Of a DNA stretch of 64,000 bases, positions 31,686-42,937 are shown piece after piece; position 1 is the stretch's first letter, and each line of letters starts with the position of its first letter. Below the pieces are notes generated by a model. It saw only the letters and a program-made list of their open reading frames with translations, made no database searches and was not told the origin of the DNA. Source of the DNA: Promethearchaeota archaeon (GTDB lineage: Archaea > Asgardarchaeota > Lokiarchaeia > Sigyniarchaeales > SOKP01); NCBI GenBank assembly GCA_019058445.1, contig JAHPZA010000004.1:64001-128000 (forward strand). The letters are read 5' to 3'. Both the position numbers and the translations under genes were made by a program.

Positions 31686-31833
31686 AAAAAGTTGCTTAAA
31701 GTTATTACTAATAACATAAAAAACTCTTTAAAGAATTTAAAAATTATTAGTATGAATTATAAAACTTTGATTTTGGAATAATTTCAAGATTCTAAATTAG
31801 AAAATAGAAAAAAATGATTAATTTTACTTCATT

Positions 31834-33825
31834 TTAATTTCTCGATAGTATCTGAGTAATTTTTTGAAGGTATTCCAACGAGTTAATTTTATTATTACTT
31901 AAATCATCATAAATCTGCTGTAATTCTTCTAAATTATTTTTAATACGATCAAAGAATTCCTTAGAGTCTATCAAGTTGTTTATTGTATTTCTGATTTTAA
32001 ACTTCTCTTTATCTAATCTAAGTTCTTCGGGTTCGAATAAGTCCACATCTTTTTTGAACTTTATTATATAGTCCGTTATTGTATTGCAAAAATCATCAAA
32101 TTCACTTTCATTGAATTCAAAACCTAACTCGCGGCTTAAACCTATTTTACTAAGATCTCCCCATGATACATCAGCTCCTTTTATTGGAATGATTTGAATT
32201 TTATGTGTCCGAGCTAATTCAAGTTCATGAGCGCAATCCACAGAATTAAATACAGATTTCTGAGATGCGAAAAATAGTAAAAGTTGGGATTCAGGTACTC
32301 GTTCATTCATAAAGTCATCAATATTGCCTGATAAATCCTCCTCACAATAGAATGCTTGATAAATTTCATTTTGTTCTTTAAGAATCTCTGATATTTTATC
32401 AATCTTAAAGTAATCAAAATCAGCAACCGCATGGCTTAAGAATATGTTTAATGTTGCGTTTTTCCTACAAAATTTTAAGATTTCAGGGATCTCTTTAGTA
32501 ATAACTTTCTGTGATTCTTCATTCCATGGATTATTCTCTAATAAGAGTTGTGTTAGGTTATCTAAAGACCATATTGGTCCAGGGAGTTCAGAAAAATTAT
32601 TCATCCTTAAATCAAGATAATCCAAAGCTTCTAAGTTACCTATCGATCTAGGAAGTGATTTTAATTTGTTGGAGATTAAACTTAACTTTTCGAGTGATTT
32701 GAGTTCTCCTATTTCATCTGGTATATCTTCAAATTCATTTTGACTCAAATTTAGTAATTTAAGATTTGTTAATTTTCGAATGGAACTAATGATAGTTTTC
32801 AACTCATTACTACTTAGACTGAGATATTCTAATGACGATAAGTTTCCTATAGAATCCGGTAATTTATTTATTTTATTATACCCCAATTCTAAGTTTTTTA
32901 GTGAATTTAAATTTCCAATTGATTCCGGAATTGAAATAATTTGATTACTTTCTAAATCAAGACTTTTTAATTCCACAAGATTTCCTATTGAAGCCGGGAT
33001 ACTTACTAATTTACCACGTTTTATTTGCATTTTTTGAAGTGATTTGAGATTTCCAATCGATTCTGGCAGTGAGCCAAAATTTTTTGCATTTCTTATACTG
33101 AGTTCCCTAAGTGATATAAGTCCCCCAATAGTTTCAGGAAGAGATTCAAAAATAGTATTACCAGACAAATCTAGTTCTTCAAGATACGAAAGGTTTCCAA
33201 TAGAATTTGGAAGTGTTTTAAGATTATCAATATTCCGTAAATCTAAAATATTAAGATAAGAAAGATTTCCTATCGAATCGGGGAGATTATTTATATTTTT
33301 ATTACTTGCTAGGATTAATTCTTTAAGAGAAGTAAGATTTCCTATGAAGTCTGGAAGATGTGGTATTTGAGTAGAACTTAAATCTAACTTTTCAAGCGCA
33401 TTTAAGTTTTCCATAGAGTCTGGTAAGTTAATTCCTCTATTTATACTTAATAACAATGTTTTGAGAGATCTAAGTTCTCCAATCGAACTCGGAAGAGTCT
33501 CTAATCTATTGTTAGTCAAATCCAAAATTTCTAAGGATTTAAGATTTCCAATCGATTCGGGGAGCGTTTTCAATTCATTATTTTTTAAATAAAGAGCCCT
33601 AAGCGATGCTAAATTTCCAATTGATTCGGGGAGTTCTGGTAATCCGCTCACCATCATTGTTATTGAAATAATCTCATTATTCTCAACTTCATAATACATA
33701 TTTCTATTTAGATTACTAGTCTCAACTTCCTGTTTACTTGGTACTGGACGTTTAAATCTTGATAAATTGCCCAATTCTTTTAGTAATTCCAAATCTTCCC
33801 ATTTTAAATTATTTACATCTGCCAT
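31834..33825 (-). CDS. LRR-TIR domain protein (soluble)
   Basis: About 16 LRRs (LP.SIGNL..L..L.L..N), then TIR: IFLSHA, SQKSVFNSVDCAHELELA with the conserved Glu. Confidence 0.88.
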   Translation of the reverse strand: MADVNNLKWEDLELLKELGNLSRFKRPVPSKQEVETSNLNRNMYYEVENNEIISITMMVSGLPELPESIGNLASLRALYLKNNELKTLPESIGNLKSLEILDLTNNRLETLPSSIGELRSLKTLLLSINRGINLPDSMENLNALEKLDLSSTQIPHLPDFIGNLTSLKELILASNKNINNLPDSIGNLSYLNILDLRNIDNLKTLPNSIGNLSYLEELDLSGNTIFESLPETIGGLISLRELSIRNAKNFGSLPESIGNLKSLQKMQIKRGKLVSIPASIGNLVELKSLDLESNQIISIPESIGNLNSLKNLELGYNKINKLPDSIGNLSSLEYLSLSSNELKTIISSIRKLTNLKLLNLSQNEFEDIPDEIGELKSLEKLSLISNKLKSLPRSIGNLEALDYLDLRMNNFSELPGPIWSLDNLTQLLLENNPWNEESQKVITKEIPEILKFCRKNATLNIFLSHAVADFDYFKIDKISEILKEQNEIYQAFYCEEDLSGNIDDFMNERVPESQLLLFFASQKSVFNSVDCAHELELARTHKIQIIPIKGADVSWGDLSKIGLSRELGFEFNESEFDDFCNTITDYIIKFKKDVDLFEPEELRLDKEKFKIRNTINNLIDSKEFFDRIKNNLEELQQIYDDLSNNKINSLEYLQKITQILSRN

Positions 33826-34016
33826 TGTTAACCATATCTCTTTAGTAATTATTTCTTTTATATGTTAAAGTGACTGTTTTTACCGTAAAAACAAATAATT
33901 AATACTGATTTTTAATATTTGCTTAAAGTTATTTTAATTTCAAATTTCTAAAAAAGATTTCAATGAACGTAAACTTAATTTAAAAAAAATTCTAATTATT
34001 TTATAAAAAAGCCAAA

Positions 34017-34649
34017 GTGATGATAATTCAAGAAAAGCTAAAATTATTAACTGAGAGTCTTAAAGAAGATTTAAAGGTCCCAGAAGAAGTAATTTATTTA
34101 TTACTGAATTTGAATGAGGATGTTAGATTAATTGAAAGTAAGAGTATATTGATCCAAGCATTAATAGATATGATTATTAAAACAAAATCCTCGATTATAA
34201 TATATACTCCATTTGCTATTCCTGAGATTTTACAAACTGCATCGGAATTTGCATATCAGAGAAAAAGTGCAAGGTTTTTGCTTACATGTAAATGGGATAT
34301 GATGGCATATGGAGATATAATTAAAAAAATGAGAATGCTGGGAAACATCTTTTTTCGAAATATTGACATGCCATCTAAATATTATTTATGTTCTCGAGAT
34401 GCCAGTGATTGGTTATTAGGAATATCTAGTGAAAGTGAAACTATAACTATTCAATGTTCAGATGAAAATAAATCTAATGTTATTGCTGAAATCATGTCAT
34501 ATTTTTTTGAAATATCAAAACCAATGGACGTTGCATTTAAAGTAGCAGCAATGAAAGCAAAAATAGAAAAGAAAAAAATTAAAGACGCAAAGAAAAAGGC
34601 TAAAAAAGAAAGAAAAAAAGAAAAAAAGATGAAAAAAATGTATAAATAA
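34017..34649 (+). CDS. Hypothetical protein (possibly TrmB C-terminal-like) with Lys-rich tail
   Basis: MIIKTKSSIIIYTP and CSRDASDWLLG patterns; KKAKKERKKEKK tail. Confidence 0.5.
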   Translation: MMIIQEKLKLLTESLKEDLKVPEEVIYLLLNLNEDVRLIESKSILIQALIDMIIKTKSSIIIYTPFAIPEILQTASEFAYQRKSARFLLTCKWDMMAYGDIIKKMRMLGNIFFRNIDMPSKYYLCSRDASDWLLGISSESETITIQCSDENKSNVIAEIMSYFFEISKPMDVAFKVAAMKAKIEKKKIKDAKKKAKKERKKEKKMKKMYK

Positions 34650-34703
34650 GGATAGATAGTTAAAAATAAATTGTAATTACCATTTTTATTATTGCTTTTC
34701 ATA

Positions 34704-34727: not shown

Positions 34728-34860
34728 GGGAGGGTGGTCTAGCTTGGTATGATACATAATTTGTCGTTCAGCCAAATTAGGCGAATCGGCTGGGGCAGTC
34801 AAAGCTTTTGCTTGGATTACAGAAGCCGAGTGGCCGGGGGTTCAATTCCCCCCTCTCCCA
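34728..34860 (+). tRNA. trnP: tRNA-Pro(GGG) with two introns (about 34756-34785 at 27/28; 34796-34824 at 37/38)
   Basis: Acceptor GGGAGGG/CTCTCCC+A; D-arm GTCTAGCTTGGTATGAT; anticodon stem CTCGG/CCGAG with CT-GGG-G after removing two hairpin introns; T-arm GGGGG-TTCAATT-CCCCC. Confidence 0.9.
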
Positions 34861-34866
34861 TTTTAA

Positions 34867-35715
34867 TCAATAATAATCGAAAGAGCCATATTTTTCACAG
34901 TATTTTGAAAAAATTTTAGATTTATTTTCTTGAAAAAAGGTCGATTGAACCATAATGTGGCAATTTCTACACAAACATATACAATTTTCATTTATAATAA
35001 TATTTCTAAGTTTATCCATATCCGAAACTGTTATAAAATAGTAAGAAATAGGTTTAGTTTTTTTCAAAGGATCAAGATGGTGAATTTCAAGTGCTGGTAA
35101 ATTGTCAATATTATTGAATGTAATCCCAAAACCGCAACTAGTACAATACCCTCTGCATATATCTAAAATCATTAATTTTTTTCTTACAATCCGTTGTATA
35201 CCTTGTCTTAATGCATGATTAGGGATTAGTGTTGGGGTAATTACTGTGGGATCATGAATCTTAAGAATTATATCCATATATTCATAAAAGAATTTAGATT
35301 GAAGTTTCATATGACAATTCCTACAAATAACGATCACTTTTTGTTTTATTATTTCATTTTTAATTATTGACCAATTTTTATAGCGCACACTTCTCCAAAA
35401 ACCTTTTTCCCTTGCTTTTATAGTTGATAATTCAGGATCAAGATGGTGGAAGTCTAACATTGGAAGGTTATCAATGCCCACCTCATTACAAATTTGACAT
35501 CTGTTCAAATCCTTAGTAACGAACCTTATAGCTTGGATTTTATTAATCCAACTCTTCATCTGTAGTCTATAAGCTTCTGCTTTTATATCACATTTTTTAC
35601 ATGTAGGTCTTCTTTTTTTTGAATTTGTATAAAATTTGAATTCAGAATACGGTTTAATTTGATGACATTTGCTACATTCTTTTTCTTTTTTTTCTGAATT
35701 ATTATATAAACTCAT
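34867..35715 (-). CDS. Protein with N-terminal Zn finger and two tandem HNH-like nuclease domains
   Basis: CSKC...CKKC; CQIC..LDFHHLDP..ICRNCH and CTSC..LEIHHLDP..LCRNCH. Confidence 0.8.
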   Translation of the reverse strand: MSLYNNSEKKEKECSKCHQIKPYSEFKFYTNSKKRRPTCKKCDIKAEAYRLQMKSWINKIQAIRFVTKDLNRCQICNEVGIDNLPMLDFHHLDPELSTIKAREKGFWRSVRYKNWSIIKNEIIKQKVIVICRNCHMKLQSKFFYEYMDIILKIHDPTVITPTLIPNHALRQGIQRIVRKKLMILDICRGYCTSCGFGITFNNIDNLPALEIHHLDPLKKTKPISYYFITVSDMDKLRNIIINENCICLCRNCHIMVQSTFFQENKSKIFSKYCEKYGSFDYY

Positions 35716-35835
35716 TTTTTGCTTATATTTAGTAGAATTTTAATTTACATTATAATTGAAATTGCTATATTTAAAGGAAAATAATGTGAGCCCAAAGAAA
35801 GAAGAATAATATATCAAAGGAAAAAGAATAAAAGA

Positions 35836-37113
35836 TTAATAGGTCTTTTTATCAATTTCTTCTTCGACATATTTGATATGGTTTTTAAGCTTATTTCTTA
35901 ATTCTTCTTTATTTGTTGCTAAACTCAATACTAATTGGCAATCTTGACAAAGAGCTACTATATTGTAAATTGAATTAAGTCCCCCTTTATGTGGAGGTGT
36001 TATGTATTCAAGTTCTAAATATGGTTTATTATTCCTGTCGACATGGGGAGATTTTTTTCCACAATTTTCACAATATCCATCAGCTCTGAATAATACATAT
36101 TCTTCAATATTATCGGTCTTTTTAAATCCCCGTATTTTAATTTCTACTGGTGATGGAATTTCTTCTAAATTTTTCACTCTCTTCCTTATATTAAGAAATT
36201 CGGGATTAGCAATTCTATTTACTTTTAGTAAAACCGCATCTCTAAATTGAGTAACTATTTTTCCATCCTTATTTTGTCTTATTTCTATTCCAGTGCATTT
36301 TAAAGGATCTTCAATAGTTAATAAAATCGTTCTTTCTTTTCCTTTAATAATTTCACCATATTTAATGGGAAATGGTTGCTCTAGTTTCTTTGGTTTATAA
36401 CCAAAAATTGAAGCGATATTTACAGCAAATTCATTAAAATCAAAATAAGCTTTTCTAAAGAAACTTAAAGCATCGATTTTCAAATAGTAAGATGTCTTAT
36501 TAATTGATCGTTCTTGAGGATTGTCAGGTAGATAGATTACTAACTTTTCTTCAGGATTGAGTTGTAAAAAAGTATGATCAATTATTCCTTGGTAATGTTG
36601 TTCTAAATCTCTATACTGTTTAATTCTTGAACCTGATTTTTTCCAATAAATATTGAATTCCCTTTTTATATCTTCCTTGAATTTATAATTATTTAAGTTC
36701 TTCATAACAGCATTAAAACTTCTAGGAACATTAAAAATCGAAGTTTCTTTCTTTATTATCTTGAGAAAGTAATCCTGCATTATTCTCATTGAATTAAGGA
36801 AGGGATTGAAATCGATTACCATATCAACTAATACTGGAGACCAGAAATTGATTCTTTCTGTATTTAATGATAAAGAAGGCTTTTGCATTTTAAATTGTTG
36901 TACACAAAACCTCGCACTTTCTTCCATAGAAAGCAAACGATAAATACCTGAATATGCTCGAAATAAGAACCATTCAATATTGGCTTTTTGATTAATAATC
37001 TCGATAATATCTTTAGGATTTCTACCATTAACTTTAGAGGCTATAGATTCTAACCAGCCTCCTAAATTTTGAAATAAGTTATATTGATTAAAAAAATTAA
37101 CATTATAGTACAA
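35836..37113 (-). CDS. HEPN-like (RxxxxH) domain fused to a degenerate HNH domain
   Basis: YRDLEQH in a helical N-terminal domain; C-terminal RADGYCENC..PYLELEYI..GG..NIVALCQDCQ with the HNH His residues replaced. Confidence 0.65.
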   Translation of the reverse strand: MYYNVNFFNQYNLFQNLGGWLESIASKVNGRNPKDIIEIINQKANIEWFLFRAYSGIYRLLSMEESARFCVQQFKMQKPSLSLNTERINFWSPVLVDMVIDFNPFLNSMRIMQDYFLKIIKKETSIFNVPRSFNAVMKNLNNYKFKEDIKREFNIYWKKSGSRIKQYRDLEQHYQGIIDHTFLQLNPEEKLVIYLPDNPQERSINKTSYYLKIDALSFFRKAYFDFNEFAVNIASIFGYKPKKLEQPFPIKYGEIIKGKERTILLTIEDPLKCTGIEIRQNKDGKIVTQFRDAVLLKVNRIANPEFLNIRKRVKNLEEIPSPVEIKIRGFKKTDNIEEYVLFRADGYCENCGKKSPHVDRNNKPYLELEYITPPHKGGLNSIYNIVALCQDCQLVLSLATNKEELRNKLKNHIKYVEEEIDKKTY

Positions 37114-37219
37114 ATAAGTTTACCTCTATTAATCTAAAATAATGAGTTTATTCTCTACTAAATCTATTTTTTTATTATTATTTTAATAAATAAAGTGACT
37201 ACAAGTTTAATGAAAATTT

Positions 37220-37298
37220 GGCTAGGGCAGTCAAAGCATTAGCTTAGTTTACAGAAGCCGAGTAGTCGGGGGTTCAATTCCCCCCTCTCCCATTTTAA
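37220..37298 (+). repeat. tRNA-Pro 3' remnant 1 (att-like; includes anticodon loop and the 37/38 intron)
   Basis: 72/79 identical to 34788-34866 by manual alignment. Confidence 0.95.
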
Positions 37299-37409
37299 CA
37301 CTTTTAATTTATAAAGAACTTTTTCTATATCTATATATTCTCTATAGATCTATTATTATTCTATATACTATGGTGATGATCTATATATATTGTTTTATAT
37401 AATATTAAA

Positions 37410-38114
37410 TTGAAGGATATGATGGCGAAATGTCAAAATTTAATGAATAAATTAAAAACTGATTCTAAGAATAATCATTTGTCAATAGATACAATATGGG
37501 AAGAAACTTGCACTCTTCGCAGTGGAGGTTTTGTGGGAGGAATAATTTTTTTATTTCCATCTGTTTTATTACTGCTGATGTTGATATTTATCTTTCCATT
37601 TGGTGCTCTATTATTTGGCATCCCACTTTTAATATTATCATTTTCATGTATTTATAATTCTAATACTCCGTTGATAAGATTTACAAATTCTGAGCTTATT
37701 GTTAGAAATAATGATTTAAAAAGAAAGAAGCATTTCCTTCTTTCTCAAATAAAAGAAATACACATAATTATCATTAAGAGAAAAGTATATTGTAAGAATG
37801 GAACTTATTATGCTTATTCGAAATTCAAATTTAATATTTTAACACTTTCTCGCGAATATCGTTATAAATTTTATTGGGGTTTTTATGAAGCGACTAAATT
37901 TCTTTTTAAAGGATATTCAGAAGCTAAACAAAAAGCAATCGAAAAAAGGTCTGAATTTGAGAGGGCTCTTAAAAATTTAGAAAAAATTTTTCCAGATCTA
38001 ATTGATTTTATAGATTTAGTTCCACCAGAGAAATCTGAATCCGGGTGGATAGGGATACTATGTTTAATTGGAATTTGTATCTTAGTAGGAATTTCTATTT
38101 TTTTTTGGAGCTAA
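37410..38114 (+). CDS. Hypothetical membrane protein (2 TM + soluble domain + C-terminal TM)
   Basis: Hydrophobic hairpin near the N-terminus; its stop codon lies inside tRNA remnant 2. Confidence 0.65.
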   Translation: MKDMMAKCQNLMNKLKTDSKNNHLSIDTIWEETCTLRSGGFVGGIIFLFPSVLLLLMLIFIFPFGALLFGIPLLILSFSCIYNSNTPLIRFTNSELIVRNNDLKRKKHFLLSQIKEIHIIIIKRKVYCKNGTYYAYSKFKFNILTLSREYRYKFYWGFYEATKFLFKGYSEAKQKAIEKRSEFERALKNLEKIFPDLIDFIDLVPPEKSESGWIGILCLIGICILVGISIFFWS

Positions 38115-38148
38115 GTTGCCAGGGGTTCAATTCCCCCCTCTCCCATTT
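38107..38148 (+). repeat. tRNA-Pro 3' remnant 2
   Basis: GGAGCTAAGTTGCCAGGGGTTCAATTCCCCCCTCTCCCATTT; 37/42 identical to 34822-34863. Confidence 0.9.
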
Positions 38149-38271
38149 AAACTAATAATCTTCAAAAATTTCTAAATTAAAAATTGGACTCCTTTATGAA
38201 TAAATTCTATACTGATTTTTTGAATTTAATTTCCAACCATATTGCATAAGAATTTTGAGTAGAAGTTAAAA

Positions 38272-38862
38272 ATGGCTTCAAATGAAAAAAAGTCAAAAGA
38301 AGAAATAAAAAAGGAGATTATTCAATTTTTAAATATCACTTCTGGAAAAGTGGATCATAGTCCAGATGAATTTAGCTGTGGAAACATACATAACACTAGT
38401 TTAGTTCTTGCGACTTGCAGCAAAGACGTTCCAAGAGCTACACCACTTGAATTCTTTAATGAAGGACTTATTATATATATATTTGGTCAAGCAGGGGGTA
38501 AAATACTCAATATCAAAAGAAATAAAAAAGTGGCAGCTGCAATTTACGAACAACCTTTGGTACATTCAAGAATCCAAAAAAATCTTCAGATATTTGGAGT
38601 GGCAGAATTAATTACTGTTAAGAATAATCCTGAATTATTTCGAGAAAAAGCGATTAAATGGAACCAATATAAGGTTGTAGAAAGCCTTTTAAAACCTGTG
38701 ATTAAACGCCAAAACTTAAGTGAGGAGGAGGTAGAAGATTTAGTTAAAAGAGGTACTGAAGCAACTTTTTTAATAAAAATTGTTCCAAACCATATTATTT
38801 TGAGAGAAATGCAAGAAGATTTCAGTATTTTTAAATCTGAATGGAAAAAAGAGAAAGAATAA
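38272..38862 (+). CDS. Pyridoxamine 5'-phosphate oxidase-like (FMN-binding split barrel) protein
   Basis: LVLATCSKDVPRATPL, K..NIKRNKKV, LQIFG.AE. Confidence 0.8.
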   Translation: MASNEKKSKEEIKKEIIQFLNITSGKVDHSPDEFSCGNIHNTSLVLATCSKDVPRATPLEFFNEGLIIYIFGQAGGKILNIKRNKKVAAAIYEQPLVHSRIQKNLQIFGVAELITVKNNPELFREKAIKWNQYKVVESLLKPVIKRQNLSEEEVEDLVKRGTEATFLIKIVPNHIILREMQEDFSIFKSEWKKEKE

Positions 38863-38947
38863 TATTATATTTCTATATTATTAAATTGAAAAAAATTTAC
38901 CAACTATTTCTAAACAAATAATTTATCTTTTCCAAAGAATATGGATA

Positions 38948-38980
38948 TGGTCGGGGGTTCAATTCCCCCATCTCCCATTT
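38948..38980 (+). repeat. tRNA-Pro 3' remnant 3
   Basis: TGGTCGGGGGTTCAATTCCCCCATCTCCCATTT; 31/33 identical to 34831-34863. Confidence 0.9.
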
Positions 38981-39123
38981 CTATTAACAAAATTTATTCC
39001 TATATTTTTCAAAAATTTCTTATAAATATTTTTGAGTTTTTAGAGAAATACAATCACATACTATACTATTTATTTATCAATGATAAAAACATAAAAAAAA
39101 GATTCCTTTTTTGCTTTAGATAA

Positions 39124-40107
39124 TTATTTCAGATACTCATCAACCCATCTTATAATCTCCTTGCTTTCTTCATCAGGTTTTACTATAGGAATACCATGCC
39201 CACAGTGCATTCGTACATACTTCCAGCTGCCTTTTACAAGTGATTTAACGCGAGCTACCTCCTCATCACTTATAGCACCCAAAAGTCGTCCCTCATACAT
39301 AAACCAATTTGCATGCAAAAATAGTATTGGTTGTGCAACCTTAGCAAGAGTTTCTGCGTGATCGAAATCTTTACCTACCGATCCATCCAAAAATGCCTTT
39401 GTGAAAGTAAAATCGAACTGTGAATTACCTTTCAGAAGAATACGTCTTTCTGGAGGCAAGAACTTTAAATCTACCGGACTATTTGGTCGGAAGAACAGTT
39501 TTATTGCAATTATTTTTGAAATGAAATTTATTATAAACTTAGGAGGTAATTTTATATTCAATACTTCTTTTGCTATACTTCCCATTAGGGTGATACTTTC
39601 CTTGAAATATTTCGGGAGGCCACCGCCACCTGGAGTTCCCATGATTTCTACAAGCATCGTAAAGACATCGTAAACCCACGTGGTTTTTATGGTCGGCCAT
39701 TCACAGAGAAAGAGCGGGGGATCTTCGCAGATCACTCCTTTCACCCATTCTGGTGAATTTGCCGCTAGCCAAACTGATAATACACCTCCTGAAGAATTAC
39801 CCCCCACTATAGCAGGCCTTCCTACAACTTCACGCAAGAAAGCAGTCATATCCTTCCCCAATATATTAAAAGTATATTTTCCCGGAGTAAATGTAGATTT
39901 GCCATGCCCACGCAGAGTTACAGCAAAGACTTGGAAGCGATGTGCAAGCTTTGGAAGAAGTAGCATATATTCTTCCCAGGTAACACCTTGTCCGGGAATA
40001 AAGACTAAAGGTGTCCCGTTGGGCGGGCCAGCTACATAATTTAATTTAATTTCACCAGTGTCAAAAAATCCCTCCTCTATTCCTGCTTTTTTTAATATTT
40101 TATTCAT
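39124..40107 (-). CDS. Alpha/beta hydrolase
   Basis: LRGHGKS, nucleophile elbow GNSSGG, EDPP, C-terminal GH. Confidence 0.9.
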   Translation of the reverse strand: MNKILKKAGIEEGFFDTGEIKLNYVAGPPNGTPLVFIPGQGVTWEEYMLLLPKLAHRFQVFAVTLRGHGKSTFTPGKYTFNILGKDMTAFLREVVGRPAIVGGNSSGGVLSVWLAANSPEWVKGVICEDPPLFLCEWPTIKTTWVYDVFTMLVEIMGTPGGGGLPKYFKESITLMGSIAKEVLNIKLPPKFIINFISKIIAIKLFFRPNSPVDLKFLPPERRILLKGNSQFDFTFTKAFLDGSVGKDFDHAETLAKVAQPILFLHANWFMYEGRLLGAISDEEVARVKSLVKGSWKYVRMHCGHGIPIVKPDEESKEIIRWVDEYLK

Positions 40108-40213
40108 TATTTTCCTTTCTCTGAGTATAATAAATTATTTCTATATAATTTACTCATTCTGAAAAAATATTGAAGATTATATAAAGATTGTTTTAATTAC
40201 TAATTTTAAGACA

Positions 40214-41470
40214 TTATGAATTATGTTTTTCATTATATTCGTTCACTGCTTCCAACGCTGCGACGATATTCTCAGGAGGGACATCAGGTAATATATTATG
40301 GATGGCATTCCAAACATAACCTCCCCCAGGTGCGAAAATTTCAAGCAATTCTTTCACATGTGTTTTGACTTCTTCAGGAGATTTACGATTAAAGATAAAA
40401 CGAGTATCAACACCCCCACCCCAAAACGTAATATCATCTCCAAAATTTTCCTTCAAATATTTCGGGTCCATATCTCTTGCGCTAATTTGAACAGGATTAA
40501 GAATGTCAATTCCACATTCAATTAGATCAGGTAAAAGTTTTACAATAGACCCGCACGAATGGAAGAAAATCTTCATAGAACTATGTTTTTTTACATAATC
40601 ACATAATTCTTGATGTCCTCTTTTGAAAAATTTCCTGTAAGTTTTAAGGCTAATCATTGGTCCTTTATTTTCTCCTAAATCATCTCCAAAAGTAATAATA
40701 TCAAGCACATCCCCAAGATATTTACACACTACTTTTAAAGCGTTAATATAAAATTCGATCTGTAAATCAACAAATTTTACTACCTTTGTTGGATTTCGAA
40801 TTGTATCTATGAGAAACTTATCCATTCTTCTAAAAGAATGAGTTCCTTGAAATATATTCGTAGTAAGACATAAAATTATTATTTTATTTGTTTCTTGACG
40901 CAGTTTAATCACGTTGTCTCTTAAATTTTTCCAAAACCTTTTCTCACCCATATTACTAAGAGGGGGAATAACACCCTTGGCCCATAGATTTTTATCTAAA
41001 GCTTGTATGTAGGATTGTAAGTCAAATTTTTCAGGATATTTTTCCAGCCAAGGATAATAAGTTTGATCCATAACAAGAGAATCCTTTGACATTCTTCCAA
41101 TAATAGTGCCATCGGAATGAATCAGTTCGAAAGAACCATCGGGATTGTGCCTCGGTGAAAGATAAACAGGAAATTGTGCCTTAATGCCATGCAACTCAAC
41201 ATCATACCAATCTTTATCTTCTGTAAGATAAGCTGAACCTATATCAATTGCATCAATACCGAAACGTTCAATAAACCAATCTTCGACCCGAGCCAATTGT
41301 TGAACCATATCATATACCCGAACATATCCTTCTTTTATTCCCAAATAATTTTTTAAATTGTTATATGCGATTGCTGAAATCCCTGTCATATTAGTTGACC
41401 CGATATCAACAGGAACTCTATCAGGTTCTTTATGATTAATACTAGCAAGTATTCTTTCTCTAGAATTAAT
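40214..41470 (-). CDS. Uroporphyrinogen decarboxylase / MtaA-CmuA methyltransferase family protein (copy 1)
   Basis: FFHSCG, LNPVQ, FWGGGVDT, HNILPDVPPENI. The family N-terminus (I)NSRERILASINHKEPDRVP starts at ATT 41470. Confidence 0.88.
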   Translation of the reverse strand: MNSRERILASINHKEPDRVPVDIGSTNMTGISAIAYNNLKNYLGIKEGYVRVYDMVQQLARVEDWFIERFGIDAIDIGSAYLTEDKDWYDVELHGIKAQFPVYLSPRHNPDGSFELIHSDGTIIGRMSKDSLVMDQTYYPWLEKYPEKFDLQSYIQALDKNLWAKGVIPPLSNMGEKRFWKNLRDNVIKLRQETNKIIILCLTTNIFQGTHSFRRMDKFLIDTIRNPTKVVKFVDLQIEFYINALKVVCKYLGDVLDIITFGDDLGENKGPMISLKTYRKFFKRGHQELCDYVKKHSSMKIFFHSCGSIVKLLPDLIECGIDILNPVQISARDMDPKYLKENFGDDITFWGGGVDTRFIFNRKSPEEVKTHVKELLEIFAPGGGYVWNAIHNILPDVPPENIVAALEAVNEYNEKHNS

Positions 41471-41607
41471 TTTTTACACCCAATTTATTTTATATTATAA
41501 GTATAAAATTATTGATAAAATTTAATTTTGGACCTGTTAAATACAATTTTCTTCTGATGATTTGTAGTATACTATTGAATTAATAAAGAATATTAATCAA
41601 AAAATTC

Positions 41608-41635
41608 ATGGATTCAAATCCCACTTCTCCCATTT
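41608..41635 (+). repeat. tRNA-Pro 3' remnant 4 (most degenerate)
   Basis: ATGGATTCAAATCCCACTTCTCCCATTT; 22/28 identical to 34836-34863. Confidence 0.65.
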
Positions 41636-41686
41636 AAGAATTATGGAATTACAATAGAAAAATTCACTTTTTTAAAACATATTAAA

Positions 41687-42937
41687 CTAATTTTCTGTAT
41701 TATATTCATCCACAGCTTCCAACGCTGCGATAATATTCTCAGGAGGGACATCAGGTAATATATTGTGGATAGCATTCCATACATAACCACCTCCAGGAGC
41801 AAAAATTTCAAGTAATTCTTTGACATGTTTTTTAACTTGCTCGGGTGATTTCCGATTGAGAATATTACGAGTGTCCGCTCCGCCTCCCCAAAAAGTAATC
41901 TCATCCCCAAAAGTTTCTTTTAGATATTTTGGATCCATACCTTTTGCGCTAATTTGAATAGGGTTTAGGATATCTATTCCACATTCTATAAAATCCGGAA
42001 TTAATTTCACGACTGATCCGCAAGAATGAAAAAATATCTTCATTGAACTGTGTTTTTTTATATATTGACATAATTCTTCATTTCCTCGTTTGAAAAATTT
42101 TCGGTACGTTTCAGGATTGATTATTGGCCCATTATTTTCGCCAAAGTCATCACCAAGAGTAATTATATCCACAACATCTCCCACATATTTACATATAACT
42201 TTAAGAGCATTAATAAAAAATTCAATTTGAAGATCAACGAGTTTTTCTATTTTAGATGGTTTTTGTTTAATATCGAGGACAGTTTTGTCCATCCCCCTAA
42301 TACCATGAATGCCCTCGAAAACCCCTGCTCCAAAATGCAAGATGACTGCTTTTTGAGTTTTTTCACGTAGTTGGATAGCATTATCTCTTAATTTACGCCA
42401 AAATCTCTTCTCTCCCATATTGCTAAAGGGTGGAATCATACATTGTGATCCAACATTATTATCGAATGCATTTAATAATGATTGGAAGTTTAAATTCTCG
42501 GGATACCCCTCACCAAATGGATAATAAGTCTGGTGTATGTATAACGTGTCTTTAGACATGTTCCCTAATATTGTTCCATCAGAATGAATAACTTCGATAG
42601 AATCATCGGGGTTGTGTCTGGGTTGAAAATAAGTAGGGAATTGTGCCTTAATGCCATGCAGTTTAACATCGTACCAATCTTTATCTTCTGTAAGATAAGC
42701 GGAACCTAAATCAATCACATCAATTCCAAAACGTTCGATAAACCAATCCTCAACGCGAGCTAATTGTTGTATGAGGTCATATATTCGAACATTTCCTTCT
42801 TTGATATTTAAATAGTTTTTTAAATTATAGTAGGCTATTGCCGAAATCCCAGTGATTGGAGTAGATCCAATATCTACTGGAACGCGATCTGGTTCCTTAT
42901 GATTAATAGCGGTCAATACACGCTCTCTAGAATAAAT
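41687..42937 (-). CDS. Uroporphyrinogen decarboxylase / MtaA-CmuA methyltransferase family protein (copy 2)
   Basis: Same motifs as copy 1; N-terminus (I)YSRERVLTAINHKEPDRVP from ATT 42937. Confidence 0.88.
   Translation of the reverse strand: MYSRERVLTAINHKEPDRVPVDIGSTPITGISAIAYYNLKNYLNIKEGNVRIYDLIQQLARVEDWFIERFGIDVIDLGSAYLTEDKDWYDVKLHGIKAQFPTYFQPRHNPDDSIEVIHSDGTILGNMSKDTLYIHQTYYPFGEGYPENLNFQSLLNAFDNNVGSQCMIPPFSNMGEKRFWRKLRDNAIQLREKTQKAVILHFGAGVFEGIHGIRGMDKTVLDIKQKPSKIEKLVDLQIEFFINALKVICKYVGDVVDIITLGDDFGENNGPIINPETYRKFFKRGNEELCQYIKKHSSMKIFFHSCGSVVKLIPDFIECGIDILNPIQISAKGMDPKYLKETFGDEITFWGGGADTRNILNRKSPEQVKKHVKELLEIFAPGGGYVWNAIHNILPDVPPENIIAALEAVDEYNTEN

Follow-up and report, generated by a model that had tools for sequence, protein, structure and literature searches.

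Evidence for serial replacement of the 3' part of a tRNA-Pro(GGG) gene, with an associated tandem-HNH gene family, in an Asgard archaeon

An integron combines an IntI-type tyrosine integrase gene with an attI site and a Pc promoter, and a cluster of attC sites lacking an integron integrase (CALIN) holds attC sites; the cassettes of such systems lie in one orientation and are mostly promoterless single open reading frames (ORFs). The subject of the present work is a row of gene-sized blocks behind a tRNA-Pro(GGG) gene, separated by displaced copies of the rear part of that gene. It lies in a 64,000-nt stretch of DNA from an uncultured Promethearchaeota archaeon of the Lokiarchaeia (assembly GCA_019058445.1, contig JAHPZA010000004.1, positions 64,001 to 128,000; this whole stretch is 'the window' below), within a 498-kb contig of a 4.6-Mb metagenome-assembled genome (MAG) of 30% G+C. 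Like an integron or CALIN, the locus is a row of gene-sized, mostly single-gene and often ORFan cassettes, each with a recombination-site-like repeat, and there is no integrase. Unlike them, its repeats are the tRNA rear part in register and not attC hairpins, there is no IntI, attI or Pc, the genes are of mixed orientation (strands −,− / + / + / −,− in blocks 1 to 4) and each block has its own upstream DNA of 80–180 nt.

Tyrosine integrases that cross over in the tRNA anticodon loop are said to have been described by Williams in 2002, and archaeal 'gene capture' after SSV-type integration was reportedly described by She et al. in 2001. Our locus shares with these islands a direct repeat of the tRNA between anticodon loop and 3' end, an incoming DNA that restores the tRNA and captured genes that stay in the chromosome; it differs in that no integrase gene (whole, split or decayed) is present and in that the units are too small for one. 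Because defining features of integrons and of classical integrase islands were tested and not found, the array is neither of the two. Tandem accretion of integrative elements and cis-mobilizable elements (CIMEs) at att sites has reportedly been seen for ICESt1 and ICESt3 of Streptococcus thermophilus. The likeness here is that of att-flanked units without recombination genes, arranged head to tail at the 3' end of a tRNA or other gene; the present units are far smaller (0.8–2.6 kb), and one type always has a nuclease gene. A cognate autonomous element with an integrase for the same att site was found neither at 20 tRNA-Pro loci, nor in this genome, nor on viral contigs, the MAGs being incomplete.

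Free-standing homing endonuclease genes provide a third comparison. The cyanophage pair of F-CphI and the psbA intron is reported to practise collaborative homing. The mobE gene of phage T4 is a free-standing homing endonuclease gene (PMC2790892), and SegB of the T-even phages is a homing endonuclease gene in a tRNA region (PMC13096335). As in those systems, an HNH nuclease gene is found here beside a conserved target. It is patchily distributed, and both empty sites and degenerate remnants occur; its tree disagrees with that of the hosts; neighbouring DNA and cargo travel along with it; and the target might be shielded by an intron of its own, in this case the splicing-endonuclease intron at 37/38. 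The differences are that the present unit carries a 45–79 nt duplicate of its target and replaces the tRNA rear part, that cleavage is predicted only, that the host is a cellular archaeon and not a phage, and that both HNH units of the nuclease lie in one polypeptide chain. Within the Asgard archaea, HeimM2 of Heimdallarchaeum is a mobile element that seems to have recruited a homing-type endonuclease to insert itself beside a tRNA gene (Wu et al., PMC8813620). HeimM2 and our element are alike in combining an Asgard host, a homing-type endonuclease and a tRNA gene; they differ in nuclease family, tRNA and host, and no stack of tRNA-part copies is described in that work. Taken by analogy, the array resembles CIME accretion in form, and its first block behaves like the free-standing homing endonuclease genes.

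Displaced copies of the tRNA rear part

The default ARAGORN search, and Rfam at the gathering threshold, detected no tRNA in the window. When introns were allowed (ARAGORN -i), a 135-nt gene of Leu(taa) identity was proposed, which was dropped after alignment with the genes of relatives. In this alignment (A3, with the genes of 11 relatives, some of which are without one or the other intron), the gene is a tRNA-Pro(GGG) with introns at 27/28 (30 nt, 34756-34785) and at 37/38 (29 nt, 34796-34824). The tRNA-Pro identity given in a preliminary description of this DNA is correct, because the relatives' genes, some of them poorer in introns, align as tRNA-Pro(GGG). Genomes, loci and contigs are named below, where needed, by our handles in G, L and C; copies are numbered from the working gene.

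34728-34860, + strand: tRNA-Pro(GGG) gene, exons 34728-34755, 34786-34795 and 34825-34860
37220-37298, + strand: copy 2, identical to the tRNA gene at 72/79 positions
38107-38151, + strand: copy 3, 35/38 to the tRNA gene in the best local alignment
38929-38981, + strand: copy 4, another allele, 46/51 (38929-38979) to the gene of G002
41565-41636, + strand: copy 5, oldest and decayed, 19/25 over T-arm plus acceptor

Four direct copies of the rear part of the gene thus follow it, all on the + strand and at the places where the preliminary description had put them, with spacings of 2432, 853, 832 and 2655 nt; they bound compact blocks of 2.4, 0.85, 0.83 and 2.65 kb. With up to 3 mismatches allowed, a 22-nt core occurs 4 times in the window, against an expectation of 0.00 (100 shuffles), and a chance origin of the repeats is excluded. 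When up to 4 mismatches were allowed, the 4.6-Mb genome yielded 8 matches, five of them the array and three other tRNAs. Copy 2 runs from the anticodon stem through intron 2 (the 37/38 intron) to the 3' end and 6 nt beyond the tRNA, and shares a 32-nt exact repeat with the working gene; all of its changes (7/7) are toward A/T, and every one lies left of the T-arm. The T-arm and acceptor are nearly perfect in copies 3 and 4. In the best-kept copies the left edge is at the anticodon stem/loop, and the right edge is a few nt beyond the tRNA; their extent is 79 nt here and in G003, and from model positions 1–9 to 77 in L139, L140, L147 and L153. Decay increases with distance from the tRNA. The copies had also been said to shorten with distance. 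This is partly an artefact, because every copy had been compared with the present tRNA allele: copy 4 matches its own genome's tRNA at 31/33 positions only, and the other allele over 51 nt.

Copy 4 includes 20 nt of the variable-loop intron of the G002 gene, an intron that the gene of this genome lacks. Other species tell the same of their own copies. The distal copy of G074 matches a G019-type allele at 66/74 positions, T-loop intron included, and that of G090 still has the CCAAG stem found in G076, the nearest relative with an empty site, while the working gene of G090 has CCGAG and two introns. Since the copies carry foreign alleles, each insertion replaced the rear part of the tRNA and displaced the old one, and local duplication is excluded. 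At the level of sequence, comparison with other species shows the array to be the product of serial, site-specific insertion that replaced the tRNA rear part and was precise relative to those species.

The flanks point the same way. In G002 the tRNA end directly meets the flank that here follows copy 5, so that its site is empty with respect to the array. In G003 the order is hydrolase, 79-nt copy, cassette, decayed copy orthologous to copy 5, and URO-D gene; the homology of the two decayed copies extends back to ~41565, and the G003 cassette (~0.97 kb) contains a single gene, for a 193-aa Zn-finger membrane protein. A sample of another study has the hydrolase/URO-D junction at 98–99% identity without blocks 1–3. 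In three congeners (G005, G001 and G009) the tRNA is joined directly to what is here position ~56496, and so to an aldo/keto reductase gene which here lies at 56.5 kb; the whole 21.6 kb is therefore variable. The accretion site proposed earlier is thus real, its gene content differing among relatives: empty in G002, another cassette in G003, and the 21.6 kb absent from G005, G001 and G009. Among the matches listed for 154 genomes of the order, several well-kept cores on one contig occur only here, and none of 5 further genomes checked has them; with a more sensitive model, one distal copy each was recovered in G074, G090 and G104, as was the second, decayed one of G003. Many MAG contigs stop no more than ~100 nt past tRNA-Pro (G008 C298, G014 C152, G024 C146 and others), which suggests strain-variable or repeated DNA behind tRNA-Pro in many populations, and under-detection of arrays.

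An artefact or local event was considered as well: either misassembly across the repeats, or slippage or unequal crossing-over that duplicated the tRNA end in tandem on the spot. The Logan unitigs do break at the 32-nt exact repeat common to the tRNA and copy 2, and for that reason the graph is equally compatible with a circular block 1 beside an empty site. However, in Logan contigs of the source run all blocks have a depth of 23–27x, equal to that of the flanks; the same blocks, again at equal depth, are present in two sister samples; a single unitig runs through copies 3 and 4 together with the flanking DNA, and copy 4 is also bridged in a sister sample. The copies moreover bear different foreign alleles, and the same architecture is found in independent assemblies. 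We therefore hold an artefact or local event to be very improbable. Exact-protein matches came from the source sample only. No excision joint between att copies was seen in the Logan contigs, a search limited to assembled contigs; one candidate, 34755>37265, belongs to another tRNA-Pro gene (the tRNA-Pro(UGG) genes of relatives have the same T-arm and acceptor), and the other candidate joints were rejected for their short sides.

Several observations on tRNA genes accompany these results. The tRNA-Pro(GGG) genes of close relatives have introns at four places (27/28, 37/38, variable loop and T-loop) in varied combinations (A3; L020, L016, L017, L076); as these alignments indicate, the introns turn over rapidly within the family. 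In the whole genome (G000), ARAGORN with introns allowed yields 23 tRNAs only, most of them intron-bearing and several of implausible identity; annotation of its tRNA set by standard tools is badly deficient. A search of the other tRNAs of this genome gave no further array of tRNA ends, and a pair on C9, 25 kb apart, is a repeated coding domain. No conserved arms beside the copies were accepted; a weak ATTTTTCA-type motif was the only candidate, and lies partly inside coding sequence.

The tandem-HNH family

Block 1, next to the tRNA, contains two genes.

34867-35715, − strand: tandem-HNH nuclease, 282 aa (Pfam and PHROGs HNH matches)
35836-37113, − strand: cargo gene, 425 aa, with a C-terminal McrA/type IV restriction-like HNH domain (Pfam HNH; PADLOC mREase_IV, 8.5e-13)

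The 282-aa protein has a Zn ribbon and two HH...CxxCH units, and the stop codon of its gene is 6 nt from the tRNA end. Intact full-length orthologs (49–66% identity) were found in six other MAGs, of three other genera, among the 154 genomes searched. Together with this genome there are seven intact orthologs and one truncated remnant (G120 / 33X4), in MAGs of four genera, and both HH...CxxCH units are invariant in the seven (alignment A4). About 13 further orthologs are on metagenome contigs, some possibly from the same organisms as the MAGs. Convergence on the tRNA was scored wherever the 3' end of the gene falls on the contig: in all 7 intact MAG orthologs, in the remnant and on 11 metagenome contigs, the gene and tRNA-Pro(GGG) face each other with their 3' ends, the stop codon being a few nt from the tRNA, and a complete tRNA is present on 11/11 of the metagenome contigs that reach this end.

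In G090, G104, L141, L147 and L148 no gene but the HNH gene lies between tRNA and distal copy, and the unit measures ~1 kb. Compared with the empty sites of G076, G081, G088 and G101, the site of G090 has precisely the ~0.96-kb HNH unit in addition. Elsewhere cargo stands behind the HNH gene: the 425-aa nuclease here, a three-gene module in G074, L139, L140 and L153, and other genes in L145 and L146. The tree of the protein disagrees with the division into genera. The G110 protein (genus g2) groups with that of G090 (g11) at 81% identity and with 100/100 support, while the HNH proteins of G107 and G090, both of g11, are only 48% identical. Comparative evidence of this kind shows block 1 to be a member of an element family that occurs only at tRNA-Pro(GGG) and whose single constant gene is the intact tandem-HNH gene. 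The preliminary description had placed the newest block, with nuclease cargo, next to the tRNA. Its position holds; the tandem-HNH gene is no ordinary cargo, being the constant gene of a tRNA-specific family. A nuclease-driven route is suggested by this, one that the preliminary description had not weighed for the array.

Of the marks of a homing gene, the family shows membership of the HNH family, intact catalytic motifs, a fixed site with empty counterparts, a tree in conflict with the hosts and a degenerate copy. No HNH ortholog was found on viral contigs. No recombinase was found in any related unit, and no integrase at or near the ~20 tRNA-Pro loci. An AlphaFold2 model of the protein (mean predicted local distance difference test score, pLDDT, 85.8) gave no Foldseek match in the PDB at E<=0.001, with weak HNH-motif matches only. 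Intron 2 is present with the element in two HNH clades and absent in three others, and was rejected as an immunity mark for too weak an association.

These findings also bear on an alternative raised in the preliminary description, namely that large integrase islands or proviruses were integrated serially and then lost their integrases and most of their genes by deletion. Tandem islands at tRNA genes are common, as is their decay; copy 5 is old and decayed, and the HNH gene of G120 is a truncated remnant. Against this, the blocks are compact, with intergenic gaps of ~80–180 nt, intact genes and no pseudogene remnants, of integrases or otherwise; searches for tyrosine or serine recombinases (PF00589 included) found none in the window or in any block even at E<=10, which bears out the earlier statement that each segment holds 1–2 intact genes and no recombinase. 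In addition, the HNH gene alone fills the unit in at least 5 independent loci, and no family member has an integrase. We consider such erosion improbable.

Three observations concern the relatives and cargo of the nuclease gene. (i) Larger tandem-HNH paralogs (30–35% identity) converge on the 3' end of tRNA-Glu(UUC) at 15–55 nt in four genomes of two genera (L095, L099, L101 and L105), and one is 264 nt from this tRNA in a fifth genome (L098); no distal tRNA-Glu copy was found within 2–11 kb of these paralogs. (ii) The proteins of the three-gene cargo module (L076 12141-14026; L139, L140, L153) are of ~245, 222–236 and 150 aa and have no Pfam or PADLOC match; the module may be an unknown defence or addiction system. 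(iii) The N-terminal domain of the 425-aa protein is sporadic, with 30%-identical relatives in 13/134 other genomes of the family and in 1/19 genomes of the other families of the order; the gene was not found beside the closest metagenomic HNH orthologs, whose contigs are short.

Possible routes of insertion

We propose that the blocks arrived by serial insertion replacing the tRNA rear part, probably driven, in a homing-like way, by the tandem-HNH nuclease; our confidence in this reading is about 50%. At least 4 successive insertions would have entered the tRNA-Pro(GGG) gene. Each incoming DNA would carry a tRNA segment of its own, beginning at about the anticodon loop and ending with the 3' end; this segment would become the working rear part, the previous one being pushed downstream as a dead copy; the newest block would thus lie next to the tRNA. 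The nuclease is predicted to cut tRNA-Pro(GGG) genes that have no element, and such a break would then be mended with an allele that bears the element as template. The tRNA and the distal copy could serve as portable homology arms, with the genes between them (the 425-aa nuclease, or the three-gene module) co-converted. Blocks 2–4 may be older layers, for which either this break-and-repair process, or one like it, or a trans-acting enzyme may have been responsible. We favour the tandem-HNH protein as mobility enzyme because it is the sole constant gene, has stayed intact through transfers and has one target, and because neither a recombinase nor a free form was found.

A number of points weigh against this proposal. 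The proposal does not explain how, in a genome with the element, the working tRNA gene would avoid being cut by the predicted nuclease; intron 2 could split the target site, yet three HNH clades are without it. Homing normally leaves no target duplication, and HNH genes are also common as defence cargo. That the copies usually have their left edge at the anticodon stem/loop is a classic sign of anticodon-loop tyrosine integrases. Blocks 2–4 and the G003 cassette have no HNH gene, the Foldseek search of the modelled protein gave no significant match to a known homing endonuclease, and precise loss through recombination between the repeats could mimic gain.

Several of these points suit a different account, an integron- or CIME-like accretion in which all blocks are non-autonomous att cassettes, inserted and excised through the anticodon loop by a tyrosine integrase encoded elsewhere, the HNH gene being a successful or addictive cargo. 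The copies begin at the anticodon stem/loop and stop a few nt past the tRNA, as the att sites of integrases do; single-gene cassettes without HNH exist (blocks 2 and 3 and the G003 cassette); and accessory tyrosine recombinases occur in the genus (G000 C6:27026, two on G003 C31, and one on G005 C24). However, there are no integrases at or near the ~20 loci. This genome has two tyrosine recombinases, a universal Xer-like gene and C6:27026, and the latter has no tRNA or repeat within 20 kb; an attP-like copy of the tRNA part was not found elsewhere in the genome, nor was a free or episomal form seen in the 11 metagenome contigs. Random cargo is also unlikely to stay with one att site, in an intact frame, across four genera. 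An integron-like accretion by a trans-acting integrase had been suggested in the preliminary description: the accretion site stands, whereas neither the att circles nor the integrase, with its tRNA-Pro att site, was found in the genome, at the ~20 loci or on the 11 metagenome contigs. We regard a trans-acting integrase as possible, at odds well below even, and as a strong rival because of the left edge of the copies, the HNH-less blocks 2–4, the unexplained self-immunity and a structure model without a significant PDB match beyond the HNH motif.

What appears to be new here is an HNH-led, tRNA-Pro-specific element family, together with direct evidence of swapped tRNA rear halves with different introns. 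The displaced copies can be read as a fossil record of repeated replacement of tRNA rear halves, among them alleles with introns at 37/38, in the variable loop and in the T-loop. The locus would also be an Asgard example of single accessory or defence-like genes captured one by one at a tRNA without a resident integrase, and it names a candidate driver, a double-HNH nuclease of predicted activity tied to one tRNA across four genera. A bolder interpretation, which we hold to be rather doubtful, is that the tandem-HNH gene and its portable tRNA rear part constitute a new homing element that swaps tRNA-Pro(GGG) 3' halves and their introns between archaeal species, its breaks letting unrelated cassettes pile up in an integrase-free, integron-like capture. 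If such swapping of 3' halves were true, it would explain in concrete terms how archaeal tRNA introns are gained, lost and relocated. The movement of these introns, and the shaping of split and intron-bearing tRNA genes by mobile elements, are long-standing questions which half replacement would make testable.

Genes of blocks 2–4 and of the surrounding region

The remaining blocks and the first gene beyond them are as follows.

37410-38114, + strand: block 2, single membrane-protein ORFan, 234 aa, its last codons overlapping copy 3
38272-38862, + strand: block 3, single PNPOx-like protein, 196 aa
39124-40107, − strand: block 4, alpha/beta hydrolase, 327 aa
40214-41389, − strand: block 4, URO-D-family (methyltransferase-like) paralog 1
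41687-42916, − strand: URO-D-family paralog 2, ancestral flank, the first backbone gene in common with G002 and G003

The 234-aa ORFan of block 2 has one weak relative in the 154 genomes and no match in Pfam, PHROGs or PADLOC. The PNPOx-like protein of block 3 is a divergent extra copy, and no close ortholog of it was found in the order. In block 4, the 5' end of the hydrolase gene and the DNA upstream of it are 97% identical to G003, against 78–92% for the backbone.

Taken as a whole, the 21.6 kb that separate the tRNA from the aldo/keto reductase gene (34862-56495) hold genes of the URO-D, radical SAM/SPASM, HIRAN, flavodoxin, double AsnC-type regulator, epimerase, GNAT, arginase-family and MBL/alkyl-sulfatase kinds, and no att copy is left at the far end of this interval. 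Just upstream of the tRNA (31765-34658), an LRR-TIR gene (31834-33825) and a gene for a 210-aa lysine-rich protein (34017-34649) are missing in G005, G001 and G019, whose SRP19/HypA genes border directly on the tRNA, so that variability extends to the upstream side as well. URO-D paralog 1 is closer to the single G003 gene (87% nucleotide identity) than to the neighbouring paralog 2 (~80%). The homology between the two paralogs runs on upstream of the ATG of paralog 1, so that its true start may be a non-ATG codon.

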